A DNA stretch of 64,000 bases, from NCBI GenBank assembly GCA_041743505.1, contig JBGTMQ010000019.1, positions 70,147-134,146 on the forward strand. The letters run 5' to 3'. The position numbers and the translations under genes are program-made. Below are positions 35,080 through 50,689 of this stretch, in pieces; the stretch's first letter is position 1; every line of letters begins with the position of its first letter. This stretch comes from Candidatus Saccharimonadia bacterium. GTDB taxonomy: Bacteria; Patescibacteriota; Saccharimonadia; UBA4664. The notes beneath the pieces were generated by a model. It was given only the letters and a program-made list of their open reading frames with translations. It was not told where the DNA came from and did not search any database.

Positions 35080-35634
35080 TTATGGCTTCACATAAGCGTT
35101 AACTGTCATGGCGTAAGTAATGGGCTTACCCTTACCGGTCGTCGTCACCGTCAAGGTCGTGACACTGGTAAACCGGCTCAGGTGCTCCACTTTGGCCAAG
35201 AAACTCTGTAACTGGCCATATGACCCTTGGACTTGAAAAGTAATAGGCAGAGCCAGGACGTTACCAGCGGCCACAGTTTGCGAGGTCGCCGTAGGCAAGC
35301 CAACCGGGCTGGTAAAGTTCACGTTGGATAACGCGAGACCACTGCCGCCGGCTATGGTTTGCAGCTGAGCCAATATAGCGGTCTGGTTCTTGGCTCGGGG
35401 CAGCGCGTCCTCAATCAACGGCAGGATCGGTTCAATCTCCCGGTTGTATTGGTTTTTAAGCCGGTTCAGGTACTGGATTTGCTCTTCGGCGCTGGCTTGC
35501 TCGGCCAATTGCACAGCTAGTTTATCGGTGGTCGCCTTCAAGTTGGTCAGCGCATAATAGTAACCAGCGCCACCCGCCACTACAAATGCGGTAATTGCTC
35601 CCAATAAAACATAGAAAAATTGCTTGGGTTTCAT
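35080..35634 (-). CDS. pilO: type IV pilus assembly protein PilO-like
   Basis: bitopic; N-terminal TM; coiled-coil then periplasmic domain; 4-nt overlap with pilN. Confidence 0.55.
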   Translation of the reverse strand: MKPKQFFYVLLGAITAFVVAGGAGYYYALTNLKATTDKLAVQLAEQASAEEQIQYLNRLKNQYNREIEPILPLIEDALPRAKNQTAILAQLQTIAGGSGLALSNVNFTSPVGLPTATSQTVAAGNVLALPITFQVQGSYGQLQSFLAKVEHLSRFTSVTTLTVTTTGKGKPITYAMTVNAYVKP

Positions 35635-36170
35635 CTGGCCTGCCCCGGCTTAAAGCCGATTACTACGCTGGACTGGAACGAGCTGGCGTTCTGGGCAATA
35701 TTCTCCAGGTCAACGCCACTAATTCGCGGCGAGTTAGCTGCAGCGTCCCGAAAGGCCAGCATGGAATTGTAGCTGTCGCCCGTAACGGTGACACGTACGG
35801 GCTTCGTGTCATCGCCGGTTAGCGTAATACTAACGATGGCCACGCCCTGAGGTAGCACCTTAGCCAGGTCATCCAGCAATAGCGAAAAGCGCGTCTGAGT
35901 ACTTTGGATCGTCTTAATTGCGGTCAACCGGTCCGCCGCTTCCCGCGACTTTTTAACGTTCGGCGCATGACTGGCAATTGTTTGTTGCTTATCGGCAACG
36001 TCACGGGTTAGCGCATTAGCCTGCTGCCCCAAAAAGTACAGTGTGACGCCAAATATCGCCGTCAGCACAATCAGCACTAGTACCAACATGCGCAGATAAC
36101 CCAGAACCCGGCGGTTAAGCTTGGCATAATGCATCTGCTCCTTGATGTCTGGCGACAAGAGGTTAATCAT
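35631..36170 (-). CDS. pilN: type IV pilus assembly protein PilN-like
   Basis: MINLLSPDIKEQ...RRVLGYL N-terminus (PilM-binding peptide) then TM; ATGA overlap with pilM. Confidence 0.6.
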   Translation of the reverse strand: MINLLSPDIKEQMHYAKLNRRVLGYLRMLVLVLIVLTAIFGVTLYFLGQQANALTRDVADKQQTIASHAPNVKKSREAADRLTAIKTIQSTQTRFSLLLDDLAKVLPQGVAIVSITLTGDDTKPVRVTVTGDSYNSMLAFRDAAANSPRISGVDLENIAQNASSFQSSVVIGFKPGQAR

Positions 36171-37219
36171 AACGTGCCCTCCAGCCGCGCCAACCCGATA
36201 GCGGTCGTGTACATGGGCGCCTCCAGTGCCGAGACATTCTGGATGTTTTTGAGCAGAAGACCCTCCCACGGCGCAGCAATATTAACCGGAATGCCAAGCT
36301 GTTGGCTCATGTATTCAACCAGCCCGGGCATACCGGCGCTACCACCGGCCAAAATAACTGTTTGAATCGGCCGCTTATCCGCGCCACGGTCAGCGTAGAA
36401 TTTCATCACCCGCTTCATCTCACTACAAATAGTATCAAGCTGAGGCTTCATCGCCGCCGTAATCTTAACCTGGAGTCCGGACGGGCCAATGCCGAACTTA
36501 AACTTAATTTCATTCGCTTGCTCGTGTTTAATCTCCAGCTCGTTCATCAGCTGAACGGTCAAGTTGTCTCCACCCAGCGCGATGGTGTCTGTCAGGCGGG
36601 TAACCCGGTCGTGCACGGCCAGGTCGATCGAGTTTGAGCCCATATCTGCCACCAGAGTCACCTTGTCCATGGGCTTGGCCGACAACAAAGCCCTCGTCAC
36701 GGCCGACAGGCTTGACTCAATAAACACGACCTCCAGGTTCATCAAGGAAAATAGCTTGATATAGCTGTCTACGATCGCCCGCGGTGCCGCCACCATCAGC
36801 ACCTGGAGATGCTCGGTTTGACGCTCGATGATCTCATAATCAATATACAAATCCGGCAAAGGCACCGGCACATACTGCTCGGCCTCCAGTTTGACCGCCG
36901 CGTCAAGGTCGGCCGTTTCCATCGGCGGTAGTTGCAACACCCGGGTAAATGTCTTGGCCACCGGCAAGGCCGTAGCCACTCGGGTAGCGGTAATGTGACC
37001 GTAACTCATTTGGGTCAATAGCGGCTTGAGCGCCTTAGCAATTTCCTGTGGGTCCACAATAATGCCCTCAACAATGGCATCATCGGGGAACATTGCATAA
37101 CCATAACCCAACACTTGCATTCCCTTGCTGGTGGGGCGCAATTGAATCATTTTAGCAGTCCGGGTACCAAGGTCAAACCCGAACAGCGGTTCATATTTGT
37201 AAACGAGGCGAACTTGCAT
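36167..37219 (-). CDS. pilM: type IV pilus assembly ATPase-fold protein PilM
   Basis: actin-like ASKHA fold signature FGFDLGTRTAKMIQL...; 350 aa. Confidence 0.8.
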   Translation of the reverse strand: MQVRLVYKYEPLFGFDLGTRTAKMIQLRPTSKGMQVLGYGYAMFPDDAIVEGIIVDPQEIAKALKPLLTQMSYGHITATRVATALPVAKTFTRVLQLPPMETADLDAAVKLEAEQYVPVPLPDLYIDYEIIERQTEHLQVLMVAAPRAIVDSYIKLFSLMNLEVVFIESSLSAVTRALLSAKPMDKVTLVADMGSNSIDLAVHDRVTRLTDTIALGGDNLTVQLMNELEIKHEQANEIKFKFGIGPSGLQVKITAAMKPQLDTICSEMKRVMKFYADRGADKRPIQTVILAGGSAGMPGLVEYMSQQLGIPVNIAAPWEGLLLKNIQNVSALEAPMYTTAIGLARLEGTL

Positions 37220-37253
37220 CTATATAACCATAACAATATTCATTTTAGCACGC

Positions 37254-38672
37254 TTAGAGAGCCTCGTAGTATCGCACATCCCATGAACTGCTACCCCCCG
37301 AAGAGCTGCTGCCGAAGGTAATGTTACCAGAGTTACTCAAGGTTATTTTTTGTGCCATAATCGCGCCAATATTCCCACCATTGCTCAGCGTCAGCGCTGT
37401 CCAGCGGGCATAAAATGTACTGCTGGCGGCCAAACCTTGGTTATTAATACTAACGGTCTGCACATTCATGGAACTGTTAAGGTTAGAGCCTGTCACGGTG
37501 GAGCAGTCTGGCGAACATGAGGCTGTTGAGTAGAAGGTAATAAAATTGGCACCTATGCCATTTGTGTTGGTGGCTACAACCGATGAATTGCTCATCGTAA
37601 TACCGCCAGAGCCGTCGATCATGACGGTGGGTGTCGTGGTAACGCCAGCCGCCAGCCTCAACTGACTGCTATTAGATAGGCTCAGCGTTCCAGTAATCCA
37701 GGCGTTTCCGGACAACGTCACATTGCAACTGTTACTCAACGAGACGTTGCCGGTGATCTTCACGTTGGCCGGCCAAGTCTTAGCTTGACTACCACTGCAA
37801 GAGGCCGCCGAGCCGCTGATATTATGAACCGGCCCGGCAGGAACAGCGGCTTTTTGCCCGTCGCGGTCATAATCGGGCAAGGTCACGGCAGCGACGCCGC
37901 TGGCTTCTGTCAGCCCCGGATTAGACAAACCGGTAGTAGTAATTTGGCCGTTGGCTTTAGTGTCACCATAAATGCGGGCACTATTAGTTATAGTAATGGG
38001 ATTGTTTTGCGTCCCCATCGGGCAAATCTGCGGCCACGTAGCGTTTACAGGAACGGGGCAACGCTGGTTTGCTACTGATACGGCCACCGGCGAGGCAGCC
38101 GAACCAATCCGGGATGAGTTACTCATGGTGAGGAAACCTCCGACATAAACCGGGCCGGTGGTAATAGTCGCAGAGTTGCTCATAACCAGCCCGCCTGGCC
38201 CGGTCTGAATCACGTAGCCACCGGAGGGGGTGCCTTCAATGATGAGCCGGACTTTTTTGGTAGATTTAGGTGTCACGGATGAGGCCGGGGCATAAACCTT
38301 ACCCACGGCATAAACAATTTTTTCATTGGCAATAGTGCCGCTGGTAACACAGGTTTCGTATGTAGCCCGGCCCTGGGCATTGCTATAGAGCGTTACTGGG
38401 TTGGAACCACTGGAGGTTATCGGGCAAACAGTGTTGGTACCGGTGTAGGAGCCACTTTGGTTGATCTCATACATAAACCGGTCTGCGCCAGCTTCGGCCG
38501 CATAAACCGCATTGGTAGTATAGGTCGAACGTTTAGCGGCTCCCAGGTTATAGAGTCCCAGCGTCATCACTCCCATCAAAATCGTCAAGACAACGAAGCC
38601 TTGGACAAGCATAAGAATGAGCAGGAAGCCATTTTCTGAGCTACGTAATGGTAATTGCAATCGTTTCATCAT
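37254..38672 (-). CDS. large pilin-like protein (PilX/PilY1-position tip or minor pilin, lacks Glu5)
   Basis: N-terminal NGFLLILMLVQGFVVL hydrophobic helix resembling a class III signal without the conserved Glu. 472 aa, rich in G/S/T/N (beta-helix-like). Confidence 0.45.
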   Translation of the reverse strand: MMKRLQLPLRSSENGFLLILMLVQGFVVLTILMGVMTLGLYNLGAAKRSTYTTNAVYAAEAGADRFMYEINQSGSYTGTNTVCPITSSGSNPVTLYSNAQGRATYETCVTSGTIANEKIVYAVGKVYAPASSVTPKSTKKVRLIIEGTPSGGYVIQTGPGGLVMSNSATITTGPVYVGGFLTMSNSSRIGSAASPVAVSVANQRCPVPVNATWPQICPMGTQNNPITITNSARIYGDTKANGQITTTGLSNPGLTEASGVAAVTLPDYDRDGQKAAVPAGPVHNISGSAASCSGSQAKTWPANVKITGNVSLSNSCNVTLSGNAWITGTLSLSNSSQLRLAAGVTTTPTVMIDGSGGITMSNSSVVATNTNGIGANFITFYSTASCSPDCSTVTGSNLNSSMNVQTVSINNQGLAASSTFYARWTALTLSNGGNIGAIMAQKITLSNSGNITFGSSSSGGSSSWDVRYYEAL

Positions 38673-39355
38673 TTATTCCTCAATGCAGCAGTTGTTGTAT
38701 AAGAACTCGTGTACGTACGGGACCCGATCGTCTTGCTCTCGGTTACGGTGAAGCTAATGGCTTCAGTGCCGGCCGGCGAGGTTACAGTAGCGCCGTTAGC
38801 ATCTAGGTAAGAGGTAGTCAAATTAGCCACATCCTCAACAATGACCGAATCGGCCGGACAGCTGCCGTTAGCGATGGCTGGCGGGCAAGTAGTGACTGCC
38901 CGGTTGCTAGGAGCCGAGGTATTAGCTATTACGCGCTTATACAACCGGCGGGTAGTATTATCAAGGTAAAAGATAATGTCGTCTGTGTAGAGGTTGTTAT
39001 GCAAGCCATCAATATAGATAAGGTTATTTGACGTGTCACGTGATGGCACGGACACAATGAGCGTAGTGCCGGAGCCGGCCGCACCTGACCAACTGTAAAG
39101 GTTGCCTGGTGCGCCTGGAGCGTTGTTATCAGCCAGAACATTATTTGCCTGAACGGAGCGGCCCTCACGAGCAATACGGGCCACTGCCTCCACCGCTGCT
39201 TTGGTGTTTACTAGCACCTCGGTCTGGGTGTAGTCCTGCTGGCTAGAACGTATGCTATCAGTCACAAAGTTACCGGCTACAAGAAGTAAAACACTAGTCA
39301 AGCTAATGGCCATTAGCACTTCCAATAAGCTAAAACCCCGTTCATCGGGACTCAT
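38669..39355 (-). CDS. type IV minor pilin (prepilin-type N-terminal cleavage/methylation domain)
   Basis: ERGFSLLEVLMAISL class III signal peptide. Confidence 0.7.
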   Translation of the reverse strand: MSPDERGFSLLEVLMAISLTSVLLLVAGNFVTDSIRSSQQDYTQTEVLVNTKAAVEAVARIAREGRSVQANNVLADNNAPGAPGNLYSWSGAAGSGTTLIVSVPSRDTSNNLIYIDGLHNNLYTDDIIFYLDNTTRRLYKRVIANTSAPSNRAVTTCPPAIANGSCPADSVIVEDVANLTTSYLDANGATVTSPAGTEAISFTVTESKTIGSRTYTSSYTTTAALRNK

Positions 39356-39753
39356 TTATTAATCCCCCGGCTTGCCACTAGCGTAGTCACACTAGTGGTC
39401 TTAAGGCCGCCTTTGCCGGTAAAGGTGATCGTCAGGTCAATCTGCTTTAGCCCGTTAGGCTGAAGTTCGGTAATGGTGGCAGTAGCCGACCGCGGCGCTA
39501 GGAGCGTGGGGTACGGCGTAAGAATTCCCGCTATATTCTGGGTGCCAACCACCAGATTGTTATATGGCGTATTGCGGTATTGCTCAATCTGTTGTTGTGC
39601 CAACTGGTTAACGATAACCATATTGCTGGAAAAACGGTTCAAATCCCGCACTTCAATAAAAAACTGAAGCATAGCCATAATCATAACGCTCATTACAGTT
39701 ATGGTTACAATAAGCTCAAGGAGCGAAAACCCCCGCTCATCAGCATATTTCAT
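39352..39753 (-). CDS. type IV minor pilin (prepilin-type N-terminal domain)
   Basis: ERGFSLLELIVTITVMSV class III signal peptide. Confidence 0.7.
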   Translation of the reverse strand: MKYADERGFSLLELIVTITVMSVMIMAMLQFFIEVRDLNRFSSNMVIVNQLAQQQIEQYRNTPYNNLVVGTQNIAGILTPYPTLLAPRSATATITELQPNGLKQIDLTITFTGKGGLKTTSVTTLVASRGINK

Positions 39754-39782
39754 ATTGATATTATACTGCTTACGCTCATCAA

Positions 39783-39813
39783 AAACGACCCCGGTAGAGA
39801 GGTCGTTTTCAGA
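39783..39813 (-). terminator. rho-independent terminator after pilA
   Basis: aaacgacc-ccggtagagag-ggtcgttt hairpin with T-run on the minus strand. Confidence 0.6.
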
Positions 39814-39828
39814 TTGGCTCAGGAAGTT

Positions 39829-40263
39829 CTAGTTGTTGTTAATCAGCTGGAAGTTACGGCTGGAGCCAGTACATGTTGCATCGTTGTTGGTCCCAGTGCT
39901 CGAGTCACCGCCATTCTCAAGACAAGCCTTGAGGGTGTAGGTGGTGTTGGTACCAGCCGGGGTGTAGGTGTAAACCAGCACACCAGTGTTCTTGGGGTCG
40001 GTCGGCACGTTCGTTAAGATTGGCGGGTTACCAGCCGTCAGGTCAGTGAGCGCCGCCGGATAAACATTGTTGCTAACAAAGTACTCTTCCAGTCCCTTCT
40101 GGATGGCCTTAAGATCGGTTTTACGCTGAGTGTCGCGGGCCTTCTTGGGCGCGGACGTAATGTTGGGGATAATCAACAAGGCTAGGATGCCAATGATCAC
40201 AATAACGATCAAAAGCTCCAGGAGCGTGAAACCGCCTTGTTTTTTAATGATGTTTTTAAGCAC
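39829..40263 (-). CDS. pilA: type IV major pilin PilA
   Basis: KQGGFTLLELLIVIVIIGILA prepilin signal; KARDTQRKTDLKAIQKGLEEYF; C-terminal Cys pair. Confidence 0.8.
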   Translation of the reverse strand: MLKNIIKKQGGFTLLELLIVIVIIGILALLIIPNITSAPKKARDTQRKTDLKAIQKGLEEYFVSNNVYPAALTDLTAGNPPILTNVPTDPKNTGVLVYTYTPAGTNTTYTLKACLENGGDSSTGTNNDATCTGSSRNFQLINNN

Positions 40264-40361
40264 GAGTGCTCACCTCCTTAATATTTGTGGAACTAGAATA
40301 GAGATAATAAGCTCTATATAAATTCACTATAAAGTGCTTACGTTTGAGTGTCAAATGAGAT

Positions 40362-40402
40362 CAAAAAAAGCCCCCGCCCCGGCCAAAAAACCGGAGCGAG
40401 GG
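40362..40402 (-). terminator. rho-independent terminator
   Basis: GC-rich imperfect 12-bp hairpin (cccccgccccgg/ccggagcgaggg) followed by T7 on the minus strand. Confidence 0.6.
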
Positions 40403-40414
40403 TAACGCACAACA

Positions 40415-40981
40415 CTAGCTATGTTCTGGCAAGCCCGTTTCGCGTCTTGATGCCGCCGAGCGACGAAGTGAGGCCAATTCCTCAGCCAAATTGTCTGCGC
40501 TGGACTTGTGGTCATCCGCGCGCGCGGCCAAACCGCGCTTCTCCAGCTCCTGCAATTGGGGCTGCTGGGCGGCCCACTTCTTGGCCTGTACCTCAGCCAC
40601 ACCCACCACCGCGATGAGGGCAGCGGTCAGGATAAAGCGGCTGGGCTTTCCCGTCACCCGGTTATGAACCAGCTTGACGAGGGGAGCACGCACAAGTGCA
40701 GAAGCTAGCTCAATACTGCCACGAACAGGCTTAGCCGCAACACCGGCGGTCATGGTAGCCAGCACACCCACCTTCAGATTCTTTGCCAGGCGCGGCCGCT
40801 TGGGTTTCAACCCAGGCTCGGTCTTTGCCATAACAACGCCGGTTATGACGGCGCCGACAACAGCTGGGAGGTACTCGAGCGGTGGTTCCCGGAGCAACTC
40901 CGGGTTCTCAACCACCGCGGCAATCCGCTGCCGGGCACTCTCGGCCAGGGCCTGCAGGTGCTGCGTGTAATTCGGCATCAA
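40415..40981 (-). CDS. hypothetical membrane-associated protein
   Basis: 188-aa ORF with hydrophobic stretches and its own terminator. Confidence 0.4.
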   Translation of the reverse strand: MMPNYTQHLQALAESARQRIAAVVENPELLREPPLEYLPAVVGAVITGVVMAKTEPGLKPKRPRLAKNLKVGVLATMTAGVAAKPVRGSIELASALVRAPLVKLVHNRVTGKPSRFILTAALIAVVGVAEVQAKKWAAQQPQLQELEKRGLAARADDHKSSADNLAEELASLRRSAASRRETGLPEHS

Positions 40982-41054
40982 TACTCCTAGCGAACGAAGA
41001 GCGGATCTGCTCCGAATGGGGCAGATTTACACTTTATAGCACAAAAACAAAGTT

Positions 41055-41093
41055 AAAACAAGACTCCGCCCCGGCCAAAAGCCGGAGCGGAGA
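41055..41093 (-). terminator. rho-independent terminator (same hairpin family as 40362..40402)
   Basis: ctccgccccggc-caaaa-gccggagcggag hairpin; weak T-run on the minus strand. Confidence 0.5.
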
Positions 41094-41114
41094 CAAAACC
41101 GGTGACAGACAAAA

Positions 41115-41603
41115 CTACTGTCGGTATACGGGGTCTTCCACGAATGTTGGTAGTTGCTTCAATTCGTGTCGGTAGGCAGCAATAGCCGCCTCGTGTTCCG
41201 ATGGCAATTTTCCTCCCAGTCTCGGGTGAAATTTGATGGCGAGAAGCCAACGGTGATTGCGCAGCCAAGCCATGCGGGGCTCATAGTGTCTTTCGACACT
41301 CAACTCGGGCTTGGTTAAATGCTTGTAGAGCAGGGTTATAACAACGCCACTAACGATGGTAACCAAGAACAACACAGTGCCGGCGTTGATGAATTTTCGT
41401 GCCTCAGGACTCCAGTCGAACGGCAGTGGCCATACCAGCAGGAGCGTATAAGCGCCGACACCGGCGCCGGATGTTGAGAGAGCCAGGACAGGCATAACCC
41501 AAACTGGTATTCGGCAGTATCGCCACGTTACAAGCCAGATTACAACGACGACCAACCCCAGTACGACAACTGCTGTTGTGGGGGGAAAAATATGGAGGGT
41601 CAT
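41115..41603 (-). CDS. 3-TM membrane protein with cytoplasmic tail
   Basis: RBS AGGGAG 5 nt before ATG (MTLHIFPP); 162 aa. Confidence 0.45.
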   Translation of the reverse strand: MTLHIFPPTTAVVVLGLVVVVIWLVTWRYCRIPVWVMPVLALSTSGAGVGAYTLLLVWPLPFDWSPEARKFINAGTVLFLVTIVSGVVITLLYKHLTKPELSVERHYEPRMAWLRNHRWLLAIKFHPRLGGKLPSEHEAAIAAYRHELKQLPTFVEDPVYRQ

Positions 41604-41732
41604 GTTGCTCCCTGTGTCAGGAAGGTACTGGAGGGGAAACGAACTAACAACTAGATTAATATACTCCTCAAGCCAAAATACGCAAGAGTTTGTCCACAAT
41701 GTTAATCAAAACAAGAATACCCCCAGATATGA

Positions 41733-41770
41733 GGACGCCCGCCCCGGTCATTGACCGGGGCGGGCGTAAG
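41733..41770 (-). terminator. strong GC hairpin terminator
   Basis: cgcccgccccggtca/tgaccggggcgggcg, about a 15-bp perfect stem. Confidence 0.55.
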
Positions 41771-41783
41771 CTGTGAAGAGTGG

Positions 41784-41909
41784 TTATGCAGCCTTGTCGT
41801 AAGGCGCTTCGTCCTCTTCACGGACCAACACGGCCCGGCGGCGCAGAAGCCCGGCTGCTACCAGCCCCACTATTGCCACCGCAATCAAAACAATCCAGCC
41901 GCGATTCAC
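41784..41909 (-). CDS. 41-aa single-TM peptide (GTG start), paralog B
   Basis: GGAGG-N6-GTG; VNRGWIVLIAVAIVGLVAAGLLRRRAVLVREEDEAPYDKAA. Confidence 0.4.
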   Translation of the reverse strand: MNRGWIVLIAVAIVGLVAAGLLRRRAVLVREEDEAPYDKAA

Positions 41910-41940
41910 AATTCACCTCCTTTACTGACTCGATGGAGGC

Positions 41941-42054
41941 CTATTTATCGGTGTTCCGGTTAGCCCGGCTCCGCGCGCGAAGCTTCGCGAACAACCCCAG
42001 CGCCGCCGCCACCAGACCGATGCGTTTCCACGACTGGCCTGACCACTTGGGCAT
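41941..42054 (-). CDS. 37-aa single-TM peptide, paralog A
   Basis: GAGGGGG-N6-ATG; MPKWSGQSWKRIGLVAAALGLFAKLRARSRANRNTDK. Shares the GLVAAxLGL core and an identical RBS-spacer (GGTGAAT) with paralog B. Confidence 0.4.
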   Translation of the reverse strand: MPKWSGQSWKRIGLVAAALGLFAKLRARSRANRNTDK

Positions 42055-42147
42055 GATTCACCCCCTCGAACATGTCGGATGTGCCCTTCGGACTATTAGG
42101 TGATACCACAGGGGTAAAATAATTGCTAGCTTAAGTAGTTAGGGCAA

Positions 42148-43380
42148 TTAAACAGAGTTACTGATCTCTGAGATCGGACCAAACACCGAGATAACGATAA
42201 AACCAACCATGCCTCCGAGCACAATAATAAGAATCGGTTCAATGATAGAAGTGATGCCGGAAATTACCGTGTCAACCTCACGCTCATAAAAGCCGGCCAG
42301 TTTGAGCAAAATTTCATCAATTTTGCCCGTTTCCTCACCCACCGACAGCATTTGGCCGACGATAGCGGGGAAGTGTGGGGAGGCCCGGATTTGCTCGCTC
42401 ATGGGCCGGCCGTTCTTAACTTTTTGGGCCACGATAGCTAATTCATCGCGGTAGACCGTGCTGCCTAGAGCACTTTGAGTAGCCTTCAAGGCATCGAGCA
42501 CCGAGATGCCCGAGGCCATCAGCGAACCAAAAGTACGGGCAAACCGCGCTATATTAACCTTAACAAGGATCGGGCCAATAATAGGGGCTTTGAGCAGCAG
42601 CCGGTCAAAAATACGCTTACCGCTATCGGTCCGGTGCCAGCGCACAAAAGCAATGATTGCTACAATCGCGCCACCAATAAGGTAATACCAGCCATGCACC
42701 AGGAAATCGGACATTGCTAACATAATTTTTGTGTAGATAGGCAGGTCGGCGCCCGCATCCTCAAAAATGCTGGACAATTTCGGCACGATCACAGTCATTA
42801 GGAAAAAGAATGCGCCAAAAGTCGCTATTGTAATAACGGCCGGGTAGATCATGGCGCTCTTGACCTTGCTCACGATCTCGGCGTCTTTTTCCTGCTGGGT
42901 GGCCAGGCGGTCAAGCACGTCATCCAGAATACCGCCGGTTTCACCGGCCCGCACCATGTTGACATAGATATTATTGAATACGTCCGGATGAGCGGCCAGC
43001 GCGTTGGCTAAGGTAGCACCGCCTTCAACCTGTTTGGATACATCAGCCACCACCAGCTTAAGTTTCTTCGACTCGGATTGTTCCGCCAGGATGCTCAGGG
43101 CCTGCGCGATCGGCACACCGGCATTAATCATCGTGGCAAACTGACGGCTCATGATAACCTTATCTTGTAATTTAACTCCGCCGCCCAGGTGTATTTTCTC
43201 CAGAAATCCATCGAGACCGCCAATACCAGCCGGCTTGGCCTTTGCCTCCTCCTTGAGCAGGATCGGCGTCAGACCTTTATCGGCCAGGCTGGCTGCAGCT
43301 GCCGCCCGGTCAGCCGCAAATAACGTACCCTTCTGGAACACCCCGGACTTGTCACGCGCACTGTAACTAAATGATGCCAT
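42148..43380 (-). CDS. pilC: type IV pilus inner-membrane platform protein PilC (GspF family)
   Basis: two GspF repeats and three TM segments; 410 aa. Confidence 0.9.
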   Translation of the reverse strand: MASFSYSARDKSGVFQKGTLFAADRAAAAASLADKGLTPILLKEEAKAKPAGIGGLDGFLEKIHLGGGVKLQDKVIMSRQFATMINAGVPIAQALSILAEQSESKKLKLVVADVSKQVEGGATLANALAAHPDVFNNIYVNMVRAGETGGILDDVLDRLATQQEKDAEIVSKVKSAMIYPAVITIATFGAFFFLMTVIVPKLSSIFEDAGADLPIYTKIMLAMSDFLVHGWYYLIGGAIVAIIAFVRWHRTDSGKRIFDRLLLKAPIIGPILVKVNIARFARTFGSLMASGISVLDALKATQSALGSTVYRDELAIVAQKVKNGRPMSEQIRASPHFPAIVGQMLSVGEETGKIDEILLKLAGFYEREVDTVISGITSIIEPILIIVLGGMVGFIVISVFGPISEISNSV

Positions 43381-43383
43381 TGA

Positions 43384-45435
43384 TTACTCCCGGGTTACTC
43401 TTAAGATCTCTTCGATGGTCGTCCGGCCCATCAAAGCTTTTACAAAACCGTCCTGTTGCATGGTTAACATACCGCCGCGGACGGCCTGTAGCTGAATGTC
43501 ATCCGAGGTTGCGTGACCCACAATCATCTTCTGGATCGAATCACTCACTTCCAGGACCTCGTAAATACCCATGCGCCCCTGGTACCCAACCCCGCCACAA
43601 GCTTCACACCCGGGACCGGCTTTATACAGAATAAATTGACCGGCCTTGAGATGGGCTGGATCCGGAGCCGGCCCGGCCTGCAGGGGCGCGGGAGGCGGGG
43701 CTGCCGCGCCGACAACCAGCGCAGCAGCAGGGGCAGTCACGGGTGCCGGCGGTTGCGGTGCTGCCGGGGAGCCGGCCTTTTTGGCGTCCTCGACCGACCG
43801 GTTGATAATATTCGGGTCGGCCGCGATCTTATCCAGAATCGAATTCGCCGTATCAATATCATGCGTCGGCTCAATAATCCGGTTCTTCTTGCGCTCGTTC
43901 GGCTCTACCCGCACTGGCTTTGGCGCCTCTTGCGGCACCGGTGAAGGTACAGCCGGCTTCTCGGCCGGGATCGCTCCGCCGCTCTTCAGTTCATTGAAAT
44001 GCTTTAGCGCAATATCAAGCTGGAAATCCCGCTTGATATTACTAAGCTCTGTGCCCTCGGGCACGTACGACTGGCGGCAAACCGGGCACAGCCGCCGCAC
44101 CAGCCGCTGGCCAATCACTGTGTTAACCGTACTCGCAATCAGAAACGGCTCAATGCCCATATCCAACAACCGGGGTAGGGTAGTGGCGGCATTATTAGTG
44201 TGCAGCGTGCTCAAAACCACGTGCCCGGTCAAAGCCGCCTGCACAGCCAAATCCGCCGTCTCACCGTCACGAATCTCACCCACCATGATGATGTTGGGGT
44301 CTTGCCGCAACAGCGCCCGCAAACCGGCCGCGAAACTCATGCCGGCCTTAACGTTGGTTTGCGTCTGGTTGACACCGGTCACGCGGTATTCCACCGGGTC
44401 CTCAATCGTCGAAATATTCACGCCCGCCGTGTTGAGCATTGACAATATCGAATACAACGTAGTGGACTTGCCCGAGCCGGTCGGACCCGTTACCAGCGTC
44501 ATACCATGCGGCTTGTGCAGGTTGCGGCCGATAGTATCCAGCGCATTACCGGCAAAGCCCAGCTCTTCCAATGTCAGCGCCCGGGCCGATTCGTCCAAAA
44601 TACGCATGACGACCTTCTCGCCGTCCATGATCGGCAAAGTCGATACCCGCAGCGCCACTTGCTTCTGCCCGATACTAAACTTAAACCGCCCGTCCTGTGG
44701 TACCCGGTGCTCATCAATTTTCAAATTCGACAAAATCTTAATACGCGACACTACCGCCGCCAATATTGGCTTTGGCAAAGTCATGGTTTCGCGCAGTACA
44801 CCATCGATGCGGTAACGCACCTGCACAATATTTTCCCGCGGCTCAATATGAATGTCGGATGCCCGGCTCTTGATGGCGTATTCCAATATGACGTTTACCG
44901 TTTTGGCGATTGGTGCGTCTTCGGCTATATCCTTTGCCGACACCTTTTCCTCGGCCGCCGCGTCCGCGCTGCTGTCCTTGATGGCCTTTGTTATCTCGCT
45001 CGATATGTTACCCTTGTATTGGTCAATAGCACCCAACACATCGCTTGGCACCGCCAAATAAGACTTAAGTTTCCCGCCGACTTGCTTGCTAATAAAGTCT
45101 GCCGCCTGGAAGTCCTCAGGATCGGCCATAGCCAGCTGATAGTGGTCCTCCTCCACACCAAATAACACCGCCTGATACTTCCGCGCGATCCGCTCCGGGA
45201 TCTTTAGCAGCACCTCGCGCGGAATCTTAACGTCACCCAATTCTACGAACGGCACCTTAATACTGTCCGCAAACAGTTTGGCCAGGTCCTTCTCGTTAAT
45301 GAATTTATTTTTGAGGACGGCAGCTTGCAGCGTTTCGGTGGATCCTTGCTTGGGCGTAGCATCATTAAGAACGGTCTCTTTTACGCGACCGGAGTCAATT
45401 AACAGCTTTCTGAGCTCACCATCAGATATGTGCAT
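43384..45435 (-). CDS. pilB: type IV pilus assembly ATPase PilB (GspE family) with low-complexity insertion
   Basis: Walker A GPTGSGKSTTL, Asp box, Walker B, His box, tetracysteine CPVC...CEAC. 683 aa. Confidence 0.9.
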   Translation of the reverse strand: MHISDGELRKLLIDSGRVKETVLNDATPKQGSTETLQAAVLKNKFINEKDLAKLFADSIKVPFVELGDVKIPREVLLKIPERIARKYQAVLFGVEEDHYQLAMADPEDFQAADFISKQVGGKLKSYLAVPSDVLGAIDQYKGNISSEITKAIKDSSADAAAEEKVSAKDIAEDAPIAKTVNVILEYAIKSRASDIHIEPRENIVQVRYRIDGVLRETMTLPKPILAAVVSRIKILSNLKIDEHRVPQDGRFKFSIGQKQVALRVSTLPIMDGEKVVMRILDESARALTLEELGFAGNALDTIGRNLHKPHGMTLVTGPTGSGKSTTLYSILSMLNTAGVNISTIEDPVEYRVTGVNQTQTNVKAGMSFAAGLRALLRQDPNIIMVGEIRDGETADLAVQAALTGHVVLSTLHTNNAATTLPRLLDMGIEPFLIASTVNTVIGQRLVRRLCPVCRQSYVPEGTELSNIKRDFQLDIALKHFNELKSGGAIPAEKPAVPSPVPQEAPKPVRVEPNERKKNRIIEPTHDIDTANSILDKIAADPNIINRSVEDAKKAGSPAAPQPPAPVTAPAAALVVGAAAPPPAPLQAGPAPDPAHLKAGQFILYKAGPGCEACGGVGYQGRMGIYEVLEVSDSIQKMIVGHATSDDIQLQAVRGGMLTMQQDGFVKALMGRTTIEEILRVTRE

Positions 45436-45462
45436 AGTTAGAATTATTGTAGCATAAGCAGC

Positions 45463-45744
45463 TTAAACGCGTTCATGCAATAGCCGGGCTACGCGGCTGG
45501 CCCGTACAGATTCGCTCTTGATAATACGCCGCCCCCGTTGCGTCAGTTTATATCGTTGATTATCTCTCGTTAGCTCGATAAGGCCATCCCGCACAAGGCG
45601 TTGCAGCGCATAATAAAACGTTCTCTCGCCTATTATTAAGGTACTTTGCGAATCCTCCGCCACTTGAGTCGCAATCTCCGGTCGGGTCGCTTCGCCCGCT
45701 GCAAGTGCCAGCAAAATATGAAGGGTGACAGGGGTTGGTGGCAT
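45463..45744 (-). CDS. PadR-like winged-helix transcriptional regulator
   Basis: 93 aa; LHILLALAAGEATRPEIATQV...YYALQRLVRDGLIE pattern. Confidence 0.5.
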   Translation of the reverse strand: MPPTPVTLHILLALAAGEATRPEIATQVAEDSQSTLIIGERTFYYALQRLVRDGLIELTRDNQRYKLTQRGRRIIKSESVRASRVARLLHERV

Positions 45745-45932
45745 GGCGAGAAATTCCAGTTTATATCCGGATAGGATACTGAAACCATTTCAGTAGGGGG
45801 GCTTAAACAATATGTCATGACCCGCGAAGTAAATAAACAAAGCTCATGCTTGCATTTCGGTTTTTGTTCACTTACATTGAAAACACAACTCGCAGGTGAG
45901 GCGAAAAGAGGTCTATAAAGGGAGATTTTCGT

Positions 45933-47831
45933 ATGCGCTTGCGAGCGGTGGTTCTAGTTGGTGTGATGCTTGGGCATAGTTTGGGTGCAGCGCTACTTGC
46001 TGTTCCCGGAACCGCTTCAGCCGCCAGCGGCGGCATTTATATCAGCGAACTTCAGACCAGCGGCCCCTTGTCCGGCCAGTCTAGCTACGAATTTGTAGAA
46101 CTCTATAATTCCAGCGACGTTGATGTGTCACTCAAAGGTTGGCAAATTGAATACCGGGCTGCCAGCACCGCCAATGGCAACGATTGCTCCCTGGGCTGGC
46201 CCAAAACTCCCACCATACTACCGGATGCAGTCGTAAAAGCCCACGGCTTCTACCTACTTGCGAACACGAAATACCCTCTCCAGTCGGACGGCCGGTTTAG
46301 CTTTGACCTGGCCTCTACCGCCGGCACCATCCGCATCCAGGACGCCAATAAACAGGTTGTCGATGCACTAGCCTGGGGCGACTCTACCGCTTGCGGCGCC
46401 GGCTCTCCAGCGCCCATCACGTCCGGCCAAAGCCTTGAGCGGCTCCCTGGTGCATCGGCCCCGTCAGGCGGCAATGGCTTCGACACCGGCGACAACCTGA
46501 ACGACTTCGCTCTGCGCCCAAGTCCCGAACCGCAAGGCACCGGCGCTGCCACCGAAGCGCCGCTCAATTTCGCTGGCATAGCTGAGGGCGATCCCACCGG
46601 CCAGTTGGCGCTCTCTGAGCTCCTCATCAACCCACACCTGGACCAGCCGGCCTTTGTCGAATTCAAAAACACCGGCCCGGATGTAATTGTCCTCAGCGCC
46701 TATGCCCTCAAAGTCGGAACAGCCAGTTACAATTTGCCCCACCATGTCATACTATCCGGCGGCTATGCGGTCGTCCGCTCAGACGTCTTTCCGCTATCTT
46801 TGCCCACTTCGGGCGGTAGTGTCAGCTTGATGGACGCAGCCGGCACCCCAACCGACACCATCACCTGGGACGAAGCACCGCTCGAAGCCGGCTTAATCGC
46901 AGGCGACAGCGACTGGACGTGGACCGCCAAGCCAACGCCGGGTACGGCCAATGAGGCTGTTGCGCTACCCGAAACCATTCCATTGTCGCTAACCGACACG
47001 GGCCTCTCGTCTCTTTATCCAGTCCTCAATATAACTGAGCTCTTGCCCGACCCGGCCTCACCAGCCACCGATGCCAGCGATGAATTTATTGAGCTGCACA
47101 ACCCGAATTCATTTGATGTTAATGTAGCGGGCTTTAGCCTCAAATCCGGTCAGACATTTAGTGGCAACTACACACTGCCGGACCTAACGGTTCCCGCGGG
47201 CGGGCATATAGCACTGACATCAGCTCAAACACATTTGGGCCTATCAAATAGCGGCTCGTCAGTCGGACTGTTCGATCCGCTAGGTAGTCAGATTGGTGCG
47301 ACCGTCAGCTATACCGCCGCCAAGGCCGGCAATACCTGGGCGCATTTCGAGTCCGGCTGGGCTTGGACAACCACGCCTACACCTGGCGCACCAAATATCC
47401 TGACGGCACCCGCCGATGTGGCAGGTGCCGCTGCCGCTGCGGCTGCGGCCAAGAAAGTCAAAGCCGCAGCCGCCACCAAAAAACCAAAGGCCGTCGCGGC
47501 CAAGGCTGCCAAGGCGCCAAAAGCGCCCAAGGAAAAGAAAACTGTTGCCACTAAATTCAAGGCAGCCGCCGCCAAAATCAAGCCAACCCTAGAAGCCGCC
47601 GCCGGCGGGCCGTGGGTCCTCCTGGTCCTGGTTGGTCTGACTATTTGTTATTGTATATACGAGTTCCGCTATGACTTACGAAATTACTACCACCAACTCA
47701 GAGGCCACACAGGCCGTAGCCGCCAAGCTGGCCCGGCTCTTGAAGGGCGGGGAGACGATCGAGCTGGCCAGCGACCTGGGCGGGGGCAAAACGACCTTCA
47801 CCCAAGGCCTAGCCGCAGCCTTGGGTTATAG
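45933..47831 (+). CDS. cell-surface lamin-tail-domain (LTD) triple-repeat protein with KA-rich tail and C-terminal TM anchor
   Basis: signal peptide; three LTD-like modules (IYISELQTSG...EFVELYNSS; LALSELLINPH...FVEFKNTG; LNITELLPDP...EFIELHNPN); AKKVKAAAATKKPKAVAAKAAKAPKAPKEKK; TM WVLLVLVGLTICYCIY. Confidence 0.7.
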   Translation: MRLRAVVLVGVMLGHSLGAALLAVPGTASAASGGIYISELQTSGPLSGQSSYEFVELYNSSDVDVSLKGWQIEYRAASTANGNDCSLGWPKTPTILPDAVVKAHGFYLLANTKYPLQSDGRFSFDLASTAGTIRIQDANKQVVDALAWGDSTACGAGSPAPITSGQSLERLPGASAPSGGNGFDTGDNLNDFALRPSPEPQGTGAATEAPLNFAGIAEGDPTGQLALSELLINPHLDQPAFVEFKNTGPDVIVLSAYALKVGTASYNLPHHVILSGGYAVVRSDVFPLSLPTSGGSVSLMDAAGTPTDTITWDEAPLEAGLIAGDSDWTWTAKPTPGTANEAVALPETIPLSLTDTGLSSLYPVLNITELLPDPASPATDASDEFIELHNPNSFDVNVAGFSLKSGQTFSGNYTLPDLTVPAGGHIALTSAQTHLGLSNSGSSVGLFDPLGSQIGATVSYTAAKAGNTWAHFESGWAWTTTPTPGAPNILTAPADVAGAAAAAAAAKKVKAAAATKKPKAVAAKAAKAPKAPKEKKTVATKFKAAAAKIKPTLEAAAGGPWVLLVLVGLTICYCIYEFRYDLRNYYHQLRGHTGRSRQAGPALEGRGDDRAGQRPGRGQNDLHPRPSRSLGL

Positions 47832-48138
47832 CGGCAACGTTACCAGCCCCACCTTCACCCTCAGCCATGTCTATAAACTTGAATCAGGTCTAGAGTTGCA
47901 CCACTACGACCTCTACCGCCTTAACGAAGGGGGAGTAGTCGGCGATGAGCTGGAGGAGGATTTAAACGACAACCAGGTCATAACTATCATTGAATGGGCC
48001 GGCATTATGGACGCCCGTCTGCCCGCTGACCGGATGCGTATCCACATCGACACCACCGGCGAAACCGACCGCCGCCTCACCCTGCTTTCCGGCGGCCCGG
48101 TATCTGAGCAATTAATAAAGGAGTTGAAGAGCACATGA
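47671..48138 (+). CDS. tsaE: tRNA threonylcarbamoyladenosine biosynthesis protein TsaE
   Basis: ASDLGGGKTTFTQGLAAALG Walker A in TsaE context; about 155 aa. Confidence 0.8.
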   Translation: MTYEITTTNSEATQAVAAKLARLLKGGETIELASDLGGGKTTFTQGLAAALGYSGNVTSPTFTLSHVYKLESGLELHHYDLYRLNEGGVVGDELEEDLNDNQVITIIEWAGIMDARLPADRMRIHIDTTGETDRRLTLLSGGPVSEQLIKELKST

Positions 48139-48542
48139 TCCTTGCCCTCCAAACCGCCGACATGACAACGCGGCTCTGGCTCATCAATCCGTCAGATGCC
48201 ACGTCCGCAGCAATCGAGCCCGCCCTAACGTGGGACAGCGGCCGCCAGCTCTCGGACGGCCTGCTGGCCAAGATTACCAGCACATTGGATCGGGCTGGCG
48301 CCGCATTGGAGAACCTTTCGGGCATTATCATCTTCAGTGGGCCCGGCTCCTTCACGTCCCTGCGTATCGGTCATAGCGTCGCCAATGCCCTGGCCGATAG
48401 TCTGGATATCCCAGTGATTGGAGTCGTCGGCCAGGACTGGATCCAAACTGGTCTCCATCAACTAAAAGTAGCCAAGCCTGGCCATCCGGTGCTGCCGCAT
48501 TATGGCTCTGAGGCGCACATCACAAAGCCTAAGGTTGACTAG
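48135..48542 (+). CDS. tsaB: tRNA threonylcarbamoyladenosine biosynthesis protein TsaB (short form)
   Basis: MILALQTADMTTRLWLIN N-terminus; ATGA overlap with tsaE; 135 aa. Confidence 0.65.
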   Translation: MILALQTADMTTRLWLINPSDATSAAIEPALTWDSGRQLSDGLLAKITSTLDRAGAALENLSGIIIFSGPGSFTSLRIGHSVANALADSLDIPVIGVVGQDWIQTGLHQLKVAKPGHPVLPHYGSEAHITKPKVD

Positions 48543-48644
48543 CAAACTAAACTCACGTTTAATATAGAAGCGATACCTTATTATCTGATATTGGCCAATT
48601 TCGGTATTCTTAGCATCAGAAGCATCAGAACTTTCTAGATCCGC

Positions 48645-50180
48645 TTGGCCTTGGGCGACACAATGTTTACTTTATCTATAATTGGAGCTGTGCTATTCGG
48701 TGGTGCGGCTGGCTATTCTTACAACTACATAATCGAAAAACGGCGGACTGGTGCCGCCGCCAACAAGGCCGAGGAGCTCCTAAAGGATGCAAACGCCAAG
48801 GTCAAAGAGATCACTCTGGAGGCCAAATCCGATGCTCTCAAGGTAGCTGAAGCGGCCAAGAAAGAAGAGACTGCCCGCCGGGCCGAACTAACGGTTACTG
48901 AGCGGCAATTGCTCCAGCGCCAGTCATCATTGGATCTAAAACTCGAAGAACTTGATCAGCGCCAGGAAAAGCTCCGCAAACATGAAGGTGAACTCGAAAC
49001 ACTCAAAGAAGATTTGCGGTCCATCCGCGCCAAACAACAGGACAACCTCGAAAAAATAGCCAAATTATCCCGCGACGAAGCCAAGGCCAAGCTTCTGCAG
49101 ATGACCGAGCGCGACATCCGCCAAGATCTGGTTAAGCTTGTGGAAAAACTCCAGAGCGAGGCCAAGGAAGAGGCTGAGGACCAGGCCAAGCTAATAATTG
49201 TCGGAGCTATGGAACGTATGGCCTCCGAGCAAACGGCTGAGCGCACCATCACTACTGTGCCGCTCCCCAGCGATGAGCTCAAGGGCCGGGTTATCGGCAA
49301 AGAAGGCCGCAACATCCAGTCACTAGAGCGGGCCACCGGCGTTGATGTCATTATCGATGAAACCCCCGGCGCCATTGTCTTATCCAGTTTTGATCCCATC
49401 CGCCGCCAGGTCGCCCGTGTCGCCCTCGAGAAACTCCTCTCAGACGGTCGCATCCACCCGGCCCGCATCGAAGAAGTCGTGGCCAAAGCCCGCACCGAAA
49501 TCGATAAACAAATCAAAGAGGCCGGCGAAAAGGCCCTCAAAGAAACCGGCGTTGTCGGCGTCCCGGTTGAGATGGTCCAGCTTCTCGGCGCCCTCAAGTT
49601 CCGCACCTCGTTCTCGCAAAACGTCCTCAAACACTCAGTCGAAATGTCGCATCTGGCCGGCATGATCGCCAAAGAAATCGGCGCCGACGTCCGCATTGCC
49701 AAAACTGCCGCCTTGCTCCATGACGTCGGCAAAGCCGTCGGCCATGAGATCGAAGGTGGCCACCACCACATCGGCGCTGACCTGGCCGCCAAGTATGGCA
49801 TGGACGAAACCATCGTGCATGCCATCAAGGCCCACCACGACGACGTCGAGGCCACCACGCCTGAGGCCCTCGTCGTGCGCGTCGTCGATGCCCTCTCAGC
49901 CGGCCGGCCTGGCGCCCGCGGCGATACCTTGGAAAACTACGCCAAACGCATGACCGAGCTCGAGAATCTGGCCAACACCTTCCCAGGCGTCAGCAAGTGC
50001 TATGCCATCTCAGCCGGCCGCGAGCTTCGCATTATCGTCGAACCCGAGCGTGTCGATGACCTGCTAGCCATTAAAATGGCCCGCGACATTGCCACCAAGG
50101 TTGAAGCCACCCTCAAATATCCCGGCGTCATCAAGGTCAACGTCATCCGCGAAACCCGCGCTATCGAATTCGCTAAGTAA
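48645..50180 (+). CDS. rny: ribonuclease Y
   Basis: N-terminal TM, coiled coil, KH domain (GRVIGKEGRNIQSLE), HD domain (LLHDVGKA...HH). Confidence 0.9.
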   Translation: MALGDTMFTLSIIGAVLFGGAAGYSYNYIIEKRRTGAAANKAEELLKDANAKVKEITLEAKSDALKVAEAAKKEETARRAELTVTERQLLQRQSSLDLKLEELDQRQEKLRKHEGELETLKEDLRSIRAKQQDNLEKIAKLSRDEAKAKLLQMTERDIRQDLVKLVEKLQSEAKEEAEDQAKLIIVGAMERMASEQTAERTITTVPLPSDELKGRVIGKEGRNIQSLERATGVDVIIDETPGAIVLSSFDPIRRQVARVALEKLLSDGRIHPARIEEVVAKARTEIDKQIKEAGEKALKETGVVGVPVEMVQLLGALKFRTSFSQNVLKHSVEMSHLAGMIAKEIGADVRIAKTAALLHDVGKAVGHEIEGGHHHIGADLAAKYGMDETIVHAIKAHHDDVEATTPEALVVRVVDALSAGRPGARGDTLENYAKRMTELENLANTFPGVSKCYAISAGRELRIIVEPERVDDLLAIKMARDIATKVEATLKYPGVIKVNVIRETRAIEFAK

Positions 50181-50200
50181 TTAAGCCCACAACCGTTAAT

Positions 50201-50689
50201 ATGCCAAGCTCTAATACAATCATCCGACCTGCCACAAACAAAGATTTCACCAGCGTTCAACAACTCAACGCAGAATTATTCAGATTCGAAGACGGTCTAA
50301 GTGGCCACGATCACTCACGCAATCTTGACTGGCCTAACACCGACTTTGCAATCAAATACTTCCAAAAATGCTGTGCCACCGAAGGAGGGTATGCCGCTTT
50401 CATCGCCGAGTGTAACAGTCAGATCATTGGTTACCTGGCTTCCGCCATCTCTACCAAACTTTACCTCGCCACCAACCCCATTGCTGAAATTGAAAACATG
50501 TTTATCAAGGAGGCCTACCGCCAGCAAGGCATCGGCTCTCAGCTTGTGGCTGCTTTCAAGGACTGGGCTACCGATCAAGGCGCCCACCGCCTCAAGGTTG
50601 GTGCTTTTGCCTACAATCACTCAGCTCTCAACTTTTACCGAAAACACGGATTCACTGACTTTGAAGTCATTTTAGAACAGCCGCTTTAG
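50201..50689 (+). CDS. GNAT-family N-acetyltransferase
   Basis: acetyl-CoA motif QQGIGSQLVAAFKDWA. Confidence 0.7.
   Translation: MPSSNTIIRPATNKDFTSVQQLNAELFRFEDGLSGHDHSRNLDWPNTDFAIKYFQKCCATEGGYAAFIAECNSQIIGYLASAISTKLYLATNPIAEIENMFIKEAYRQQGIGSQLVAAFKDWATDQGAHRLKVGAFAYNHSALNFYRKHGFTDFEVILEQPL

Follow-up and report, generated by a model that had tools for sequence, protein, structure and literature searches.

A conserved tandem lamin-tail-domain protein of Saccharimonadia with a distinctive membrane anchor overlapping tsaE, a candidate stalked surface display module

Nucleases of the ExeM/NucH type (NF033681/NF033680; Shewanella ExeM, PMC6085458) are secreted, envelope-associated proteins that carry a lamin tail domain (LTD) with an sE[IL]...EF[IV]EL.N signature. 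Removal of the LTD from Shewanella ExeM lowers activity in vitro, but the domain is dispensable in vivo for the degradation of extracellular DNA. The same fold and signature occur in the predicted secreted, envelope-associated product of a gene at 45933..47831 of a 64,000-nucleotide stretch (the window) from a Candidatus Saccharimonadia bacterium (GenBank assembly GCA_041743505.1, contig JBGTMQ010000019.1, positions 70,147 to 134,146). The open reading frame (ORF) of 632 amino acids (aa) is present exactly as a preliminary description of this DNA had claimed. It encodes a conserved protein with three LTDs, a disordered stalk and a distinctive membrane anchor, and the protein may serve as a stalked display module on the cell surface.

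The likeness to ExeM/NucH goes only so far. Module 1 of the LTD protein shares about 40% identity with the LTD found in a Chloroflexota protein of the ExeM/NucH family. The OB-fold/YhcR region is missing, with no tRNA_anti-codon/OB match in Pfam and no fourth domain in an AlphaFold2 (AF2) model. The EEP nuclease domain is missing as well, while the positive control L057 matched both NF033681 and Exo_endo_phos. The LTD protein also has three LTDs in tandem, and a family-specific transmembrane (TM) anchor takes the place of GlyGly-CTERM. Three Chloroflexota proteins (L066 5839-8418, L070 5881-8475 and L075 5833-8379) join an N-terminal LTD to several OB-fold (tRNA_anti-codon-like) repeats with Pro/Thr/Ser linkers between them. 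None of the three has a nuclease domain, L070 and L075 have a C-terminal TM, and together they may be a family of membrane-anchored extracellular nucleic-acid-binding proteins.

Other described systems offer partial parallels. The sortase-anchored LPXTG proteins of Gram-positive bacteria follow a similar logic of signal peptide, head, low-complexity wall-spanning segment, hydrophobic segment and basic tail, and a C-terminal hydrophobic segment with positive residues is present here too (TM at aa 558-578, R-rich). The LTD protein has no LPXTG, however, but KPTLEAAAGG (KP[LV][LV]AG in close homologues), and its highly conserved TM/juxtamembrane helix suggests permanent anchoring and interaction with a partner. 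Like ComEA, the protein is membrane-tethered and predicted to be extracellular, and it occurs in a competent lineage largely without annotated ComEA. Unlike ComEA, it has no helix-hairpin-helix, its anchor is C-terminal rather than N-terminal, its head is acidic, and a presumed member of its family is essential, which comEC is not. Lys/Ala-rich tails that bind polyanions are known from the histone H1 C-terminal domain, Chlamydia Hc1, Pseudomonas AlgP, and mycobacterial HupB/Hlp and HBHA. The stalk of the LTD protein is likewise K/A/P-rich, disordered and highly basic, but it has no repeat unit (KPAA, S/TPKK) and no Pfam match to any such family, its predicted place is outside the cell and near the membrane, not in the nucleoid, and its charge is not conserved in the family. 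Judged by its sequence, the protein is a bona fide LTD protein and not an ExeM/NucH nuclease, a ComEA, an LPXTG substrate or a member of the H1-like repeat group.

The LTD assignment proposed in the preliminary description is borne out by both profile and fold. Pfam LTD (PF00932) matched over three stretches (E=1.6e-33, 115.8 bits against a cut-off of 34.3). At E<=0.1 the Pfam scan returned no family besides LTD, and the NCBIfam scan returned no family, sorting-signal models included. The AF2 model, built from 32 family sequences (mean predicted local distance difference test score, pLDDT, 78.6), contains three confident beta-sandwiches at aa 33-200, 222-335 and 362-485. Foldseek against PDB matched the Ig-folds of lamin A/C, B1 and B2 (1ifr, 3umn, 2lll, 3jt0) with probability 1.0 and a target TM-score of about 0.6, and gave no enzymatic fold; a profile of the family alignment searched against PDB sequences gave nothing at E<=0.01. 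The SELxxxxP core said to mark all three modules does not extend to module 3, which reads ITELLPDP. All three modules are acidic, with net charges of -8, -12 and -10 in order. Module 3 is the best conserved and holds the bulk of the invariant residues in the 32-sequence alignment, and the Cys pair C85/C154 of module 1 is invariant, as would suit a location outside the cytoplasm.

The topology is equally simple. Only two segments are hydrophobic, aa 3-26 and aa 553-580. The first follows MRLR and has the n/h/c layout typical of a Sec signal peptide, as had been claimed, with a hydropathy peak of 2.22 at aa 6-24, a net charge of +2 and A-S-A at 28-30. Homologue N-termini (MRLR/MRWR) line up with the start of the window protein, and AF2 places a helix at aa 2-21 in the signal peptide, followed by a low-confidence linker. 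The second segment contains the expected single TM helix, at about aa 558-578 by both hydropathy and AF2 (helix 560-577), with an R-rich segment directly after it. The tail beyond it had been called short and is in fact 54 aa. The signal peptide and single C-terminal TM, the C85/C154 pair and the LPVTG-bearing orthologues described below would together place the Lys/Ala (K/A) tract outside the cell; a cytoplasmic placement was not seen.

The protein belongs to a family of its own. A protein database search returned full-length homologues of 580-650 aa with 40-60% identity, all from Saccharimonadia/Patescibacteria and all LTD-only. Scanning the species representatives of GTDB turned up 369 relatives, from which 80 loci were retained. 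Family members keep the same overall layout: a signal peptide, 2-3 LTDs, a stalk of 44-130 aa, a TM ending in Y..YE[FY]R.[DE] and a basic tail. The most conserved stretch is not an LTD but the TM helix and juxtamembrane motif, with the consensus W..L..L..LT..Y..YE[FY]R.D...Y. In the window protein the invariant residues are W561, L563, L566, L569, T570 and Y573 in the TM helix, then Y576, E577, F578, R579, D581 and Y586 in the juxtamembrane segment, where AF2 predicts a helix (aa 579-589) running on directly from the TM helix. The motif occurs 43 times in about 0.9 Mb of Saccharibacterial DNA, once per locus and always on the LTD protein. A profile of the anchor only, which at 44 aa is very short, was passed by four short fragments among 5.8 billion proteins.

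Public annotation names the homologues 'lamin tail domain-containing protein' or, spuriously, 'extracellular endonuclease', and a search of the literature on LTDs and Saccharibacteria found no paper discussing the LTD / YE[FY]R-anchor family. On this evidence the gene product is a conserved, uncharacterised Saccharimonadia tandem-LTD protein with a distinctive conserved anchor and an exchangeable stalk. Since the anchor is the best conserved part, it probably docks to a membrane or cytoplasmic partner. The anchor is also present in members encoded between yebC and ruvC, which have no tsaE downstream, so it is intrinsic to the protein, and tsaE coding does not account for it.

The stalk is the part of the protein that varies. 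Within the K/A tract, which had been given as 60-70 aa and measures about 58 aa, there are 16 K and 26 A, compared with 10 K in the 462-aa ectodomain (Fisher p=1.7e-10), and the net charge is about +14 to +16. Counting everything between LTD3 and the TM, the linker has 68 aa (about aa 489-557), and AF2 leaves aa 498-558 disordered (pLDDT ~40). The AKKA-type repeats of the preliminary description are a compositional bias only, as no meaningful tandem periodicity was found in the tract (2.6-3.5 copies of 6-9-nt units by Tandem Repeats Finder). An antisense ORF at 47309-47581 (-), with 90 A/L/F-rich aa, mirrors the tract and was rejected as a gene because it is a compositional artefact.

We surveyed the stalks of 39 family members whose linker from LTD3 to the TM contains no Cys. 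Length was 44-71 aa (median 61) and composition 19% K, 23% A and 27% S+T, and no conservation of sequence was found. Net charge had a median of +9 but ranged from -9 to +18; four members were at or below +2 (-9, 0, +1 and +2), the lowest in a hypersaline metagenome-assembled genome (L010). More distant relatives have other solutions. In the three most divergent syntenic orthologues (L054, L055 and L061) a short acidic linker is followed by LPVTG, a TM and a basic tail, and this canonical sortase signal indicates that the orthologous head is extracytoplasmic and wall-associated. In the yebC-LTD-ruvC members the stalk consists of three C..GQ.RNPETNRCR repeats with a weak TNFR_nem match. Three interchangeable stalk/anchor solutions, with length kept and charge not kept, point to a spacer role, and the stalk looks like mainly a wall-spanning spacer rather than a dedicated DNA-binding tail. 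By our estimate it could extend up to about 20 nm, and a membrane-anchored head would need some 60 disordered residues to clear the wall, whereas a wall-linked head would not. Interaction of the stalk with a polyanion, either wall polymers or DNA, is likely as a secondary property.

The reading we favour, and to which we give an even chance, is that the LTD protein is a stalked display module of the cell envelope that binds an external polymer or host component, with the K/A tract as a spacer. A Sec signal peptide would export the N-terminus, and the three acidic lamin-tail (Ig-like) beta-sandwich modules would form an exposed, ligand-binding head. The disordered segment of about 60 aa, rich in Lys, Ala, Thr and Ser, would span the monoderm cell wall and hold the head away from the membrane, and the positive charge that it usually has probably contacts anionic wall polymers. 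The single C-terminal TM and juxtamembrane helix would retain the protein in the membrane. The head would bind an external polymer or a host-surface component needed for epibiotic growth, and not act in ComEC-dependent DNA uptake. The gene would head an LTD-tsaE-tsaB-rny unit in which the tsaE start falls within the [YH]D codons of the anchor.

Published genetics in two Saccharibacteria inform this choice. In Ca. Southlakia epibionticum, SEML1_0775 encodes a 630-aa protein with two LTDs and a 'TNF receptor-like' region, lies between yebC and ruvC just downstream of comEC, and is flagged as a core, Patescibacteria-enriched family (PMC10633639). Given its position, size and LTD+TNFR-like annotation, it very probably belongs to the LTD / YE[FY]R-anchor family. 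In transposon sequencing (Tn-seq) of co-cultures, its hidden Markov model (HMM) calls were NE/ES/ES as insertions fell from 30 to 6 to 1 (PMC10633639 Table S1), while comEC was neutral over passages (NE/NE/NE; 99, 116 and 115 insertions) and yebC was neutral in the same experiment (PMC10633639). A comEC deletion mutant of S. epibionticum is viable and non-transformable. SEML1_0775 being essential and comEC neutral, the main role of the family would not be ComEC-dependent DNA uptake. For the window gene itself, essentiality is suggested by transfer from SEML1_0775 of another species. Disrupting the pilT-less, recAX-linked pilus locus two of TM7x abolishes host binding and leaves competence at the wild-type level; the pilus cluster of the window also has no pilT, and it resembles this locus. 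The acidic heads, the variable stalk, the Tn-seq results and the TM7x pilus mutants together favour a role in surface binding, adhesion or organization of the envelope.

Several observations weigh against this interpretation. The Tn-seq evidence comes from a presumed family member with another stalk and another genomic position, and polar effects on the downstream ruvC are possible there. The stalk is basic in 35 of the 39 members surveyed, a clear preference for positive charge, and could bind a polyanion, DNA included. The family adjoins genes for DNA uptake or recombination in both of its genomic positions, and the nearest LTD subtypes are found in extracellular nucleases and OB-fold proteins.

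A different reading, proposed in the preliminary description, is that the protein is a receptor tethered to the membrane that captures extracellular DNA for the pilus and ComEC. It would then stand in for ComEA, with double-stranded DNA captured by the K/A stalk and/or the LTDs. In favour of this reading, the tract is strongly basic and, by topology, extracellular, and 35 of the 39 stalks surveyed have a net positive charge. Module 1 is 39-41% identical to the LTDs of the ExeM/NucH endonuclease L057 and of the LTD+OB-fold membrane proteins L066, L070 and L075, and deletion of the LTD reduces the activity of ExeM in vitro. The gene adjoins pilB-pilC and recA-recX in most Saccharibacteria and stands in a comEC-yebC-LTD-ruvC order in others. 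ComEA is annotated in only 31% of genomes of the candidate phyla radiation (CPR), for which the authors suggested an alternative DNA-binding mechanism, and the tables of the naturally competent S. epibionticum hold no ComEA/K02237 entry.

Nevertheless, we regard a DNA receptor as unlikely. The charge of the stalk is not conserved, and relatives replace it with Cys repeats or an acidic linker. The tract lacks the periodicity of H1 or AlgP, every LTD module is acidic, and neither Pfam nor NCBIfam finds a helix-hairpin-helix or other DNA-binding domain. The LTD of ExeM is dispensable in vivo for extracellular DNA degradation, a presumed gene of the same family is essential in co-culture where comEC is neutral, and the TM7x pilus mutants remain fully competent. 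In the window itself, comEC is 34 kb away, recA is absent and the PadR-like gene next to pilB is not a conserved part of the locus. A broader version, in which the family is the postulated alternative mechanism for DNA binding in ComEA-less CPR bacteria, a wall-spanning, membrane-anchored extracellular nucleic-acid receptor with an LTD head akin to those of ExeM/NucH nucleases, working with type IV pili and ComEC/RecA, is a little more doubtful still. If true, it would explain the pilB-recA-recX or comEC/ruvC neighbourhood, and essentiality would then reflect nucleotide scavenging or an additional role in adhesion.

It is also improbable, and considerably more so, that the C-terminus is a cleavable sorting signal in which P-[LV]-[LV]-A-[GA] acts as a degenerate LPXTG/LAXTG for a class E sortase, leading to covalent anchoring in the wall. 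The syntenic orthologues L054, L055 and L061 do end in LPVTG, a TM and a basic tail, and 7-10 residues ahead of the TM, members of the window clade carry KP[LV][LV]AG or KPTLEAA. In S. epibionticum, rny-tsaB-tsaE is bordered by a class E sortase gene. But the motif fits neither LPXTG nor LAXTG, and the larger clade has PLHPG in its place. A signal that is discarded would not be expected to show the strongest conservation in the protein, as the TM and juxtamembrane helix do. No NCBIfam sorting-signal model matched at E<=0.1, and the annotated part of the window contains no sortase gene. The S. epibionticum sortase gene, SEML1_0711, adjoins rny-tsaB-tsaE, and its disruption confers a growth advantage (NE/GA/GA; PMC10633639 Table S1); it may be relevant to the LPVTG-type LTD orthologues.

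The gene overlaps the first 161 nt of tsaE (47671..47831) in another frame, a feature for which the preliminary description had left open a true overlap or a frameshift. Gene overlaps longer than 60 nt are usually annotation errors, and the distal 40 residues are disordered and unselected, but an assembly frameshift or mis-called stop, with the true LTD protein ending before tsaE, is effectively refuted by an identical ORF in an independent assembly (Logan SRR28170470), by overlaps in 46 of 48 syntenic loci of different species (32-224 nt, median 82, measured automatically) and by the position of the tsaE ATG inside the invariant anchor, so that the TM anchor would be unfinished without the overlap. 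One exception, L013, is a measurement artefact with an overlap of 104 nt. The overlap is genuine and conserved in the related genomes inspected. In all 12 close loci the anchor sequence YEFR[YH]D supplies the tsaE ATG, with A and T as the final bases of the [YH] codon and G as the opening base of the D codon. Within the overlap lie TsaE residues 1-53, including Walker A SDLGGGKTT (aa 34-42).

The overlap is not under the same selection throughout. When tsaE was recoded with synonymous codons, the LTD frame stayed open for at least 56 nt in 36% of trials and for at least 161 nt in 7%, a conditional probability of about 0.21 of reaching 161 nt once 56 nt is reached. Nearly all family members are open for at least 56 nt, so the near-universal overlap of at least 53 nt is selected; its extension to 161 nt in the window protein is compatible with chance. 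Codon-position variability across 12 loci separates three zones. Upstream of the tsaE ATG, position 3 of the LTD codons varies most (0.56), so selection acts on the LTD frame alone. Over the first 42 nt of the overlap, variability is reduced at all three positions (0.27/0.36/0.43), a sign of dual coding. Between nt 78 and 149 the pattern is that of tsaE alone (tsaE position 1, 0.24; position 2, 0.15; position 3, 0.59), with LTD position 3 the least variable. Only the first 14 or so overlapping codons are dual-coded and carry LTD-protein function.

The distal tail, aa ~592-632, is probably an unselected read-through over the P-loop coding of TsaE. The tail motif 'GRG.DRA.QRPGRGQDDL' is the alternative-frame shadow of TsaE 'GGE.IEL.SDLGGGKTT'; it was considered as a functional cytoplasmic domain and rejected, since codon positions show selection in the tsaE frame only. 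This agrees with the variable position of the stop (LTD tails are 11-78 aa long across the family) and with the low pLDDT (~40) of the tail. Public gene calls shorten tsaE to 105-107 aa and so avoid the overlap (L081, L082, L083), which removes the Walker A / P-loop from the annotation. The annotated TsaE of S. epibionticum, whose gene is not preceded by an LTD gene, has 196 aa and matches Pfam at aa 50-172. It is probable that tsaE is systematically mis-annotated across Saccharibacteria.

The order LTD, tsaE, tsaB, rny, all in the same orientation, recurs in about 45 Saccharibacterial loci (Table 1). A scan of 45300-50400 for promoters and terminators found nothing above the expectation from shuffled sequence. 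The TsaB of the window, at 135 aa, covers only positions 1-98 of the 212-position NCBIfam profile, and the gene is short in S. epibionticum too (393 nt).

Upstream, the type IV pilus cluster of the window (34784-45435) contains pilO/N/M (PilM/N/O), pilins (N_methyl), pilC and pilB, and no pilT by Pfam annotation. Between its ATPase core and C-terminal Cys cluster, PilB has a Pro/Ala-rich low-complexity insert of about 120 aa (aa ~485-600); tblastn matches from many Saccharibacteria end at aa ~474-485, so the insert is variable. The preliminary description was correct that pilB is divergent from the LTD gene with a PadR gene between them, but the latter is no conserved part of the locus. It has no homologue in the 80 related loci and is absent from L082/L083 and from the locus of the closest homologue, and PadR as a conserved regulator of the LTD locus was rejected in favour of a lineage-specific insertion. 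About 28 of 48 loci have a pilB homologue upstream, transcribed in the opposite direction. In 24-28 loci recA, recX and a conserved unknown gene of 178 aa stand between pilB and the LTD gene, and this pilB-recA-recX-LTD arrangement matches the 'T4P locus two + RecAX' of TM7x. The window clade (L001-L004, L006-L008, L082) lacks the insert, and recA is absent from the window. The unknown gene (about 175 aa; L016 5400-5933 (-) and equivalents in 28 loci) is divergent, lies just upstream of the LTD gene after recA-recX, has the motif MLKLSASL.NL.V.SLRTGG...PIINPHNLK..GW and no Pfam match, and is absent from the window clade.

The comEC gene does lie in the window, as had been stated, at 10064-11500, but it was rejected as a neighbour of the LTD gene on account of the distance. 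Its product has Competence and DUF4131 domains and no metallo-beta-lactamase domain, an arrangement reported as typical of CPR bacteria (PMC6744442). In six other loci (L031, L053, L056, L059, L060, L065) the order is comEC-yebC-LTD-ruvC. The proteins encoded there match the window protein by BLASTP (E 1e-20 to 1e-35) and share its C-terminal TM + YE[YF]R.[DE]I anchor. They and SEML1_0775 share with it the signal peptide, LTDs and stalk, but have two clear LTDs, a Cys-repeat 'TNFR-like' stalk and no tsaE overlap. Genomes with the tsaE-linked form have yebC and ruvC side by side or with unrelated genes between them (L009, L019, L022, L039), and in S. epibionticum the slot upstream of tsaE holds HIT-domain genes. 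The two positions look mutually exclusive in the cases visible here. In some genomes, such as L019, comEC, yebC, ruvCAB, the pilus genes, recAX and LTD-tsaE form one larger conserved region, so the two LTD positions are not independent and the evidence from neighbourhood is weakened.

In the window, the yebC-ruvC interval (13388-17840) holds genes for a DM13-domain protein, an unknown secreted protein, a CAAX/Rce1-like intramembrane protease (14879-15682, -) and a subtilase (15752-16987). Elsewhere, two tandem paralogous ORFs at 780-1118 (112 aa) and 1164-1499 (111 aa) have similar hydrophobic N-termini, MFKKLDNSVVAAAIFALAEAFAL and MYKKPTKTAVAIAIFTLAEAFAL.

Table 1. Position of the LTD gene, the parts of its product and adjoining genes in the window
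Feature	Position	Strand	Remarks
LTD gene ORF	45933..47831	+	632 aa
Signal peptide, aa 1-30	45933..46022	+	Cleavage predicted after A28-S29-A30
LTD module 1, aa ~33-200	46029..46532	+	Best Pfam LTD stretch aa 29-149; pLDDT mostly >80
LTD module 2, aa ~222-335	46596..46937	+	Pfam LTD stretch; AF2 beta-sandwich, pLDDT ~90
LTD module 3, aa ~362-485	47016..47387	+	Pfam LTD stretch; AF2 pLDDT 90-97
Lys/Ala-rich stalk, aa 493-550	47409..47582	+	Disordered
TM helix, aa ~558-578	47604..47666	+	Hydropathy peak 1.99; AF2 helix pLDDT 87-90
Juxtamembrane cytoplasmic motif YEFRYDLRNYYHQLRG, aa 576-591	47658..47705	+	Dual-coded with tsaE start/N-terminus from 47671
Distal tail, aa 592-632, and stop codon	47706..47831	+	AF2 pLDDT ~40, disordered at 595-632
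tsaE	47671..48138	+	155 aa; Pfam TsaE E=2.3e-31 over aa 8-135; NCBIfam TIGR00150
tsaB, half-size	48135..48542	+	Pfam/NCBIfam match
rny	48645..50180	+	Pfam/NCBIfam match
pilC	42148..43380	-	Pfam T2SSF
pilB	43384..45435	-	Pfam T2SSE+MshEN; divergent from LTD gene
PadR-like winged-helix gene	45463..45744	-	93 aa; Pfam PadR 25.9 bits, below 27 cut-off

CPR bacteria, including Saccharibacteria, live attached to other bacteria as their hosts, and most of their envelope proteins are uncharacterised. In the one genome-wide screen available, growth on the host depended on a presumed member of the family described here. The truncated tsaE calls that avoid the overlap matter in their own right, as a TsaE annotated without its P-loop could lead to the false inference that the pathway for N6-threonylcarbamoyladenosine (t6A) has been lost in CPR bacteria. 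The architecture of head, spacer and anchor provides a concrete target for work on adhesion or DNA uptake in tractable strains, and the LTD family is probably important for the epibiotic lifestyle.

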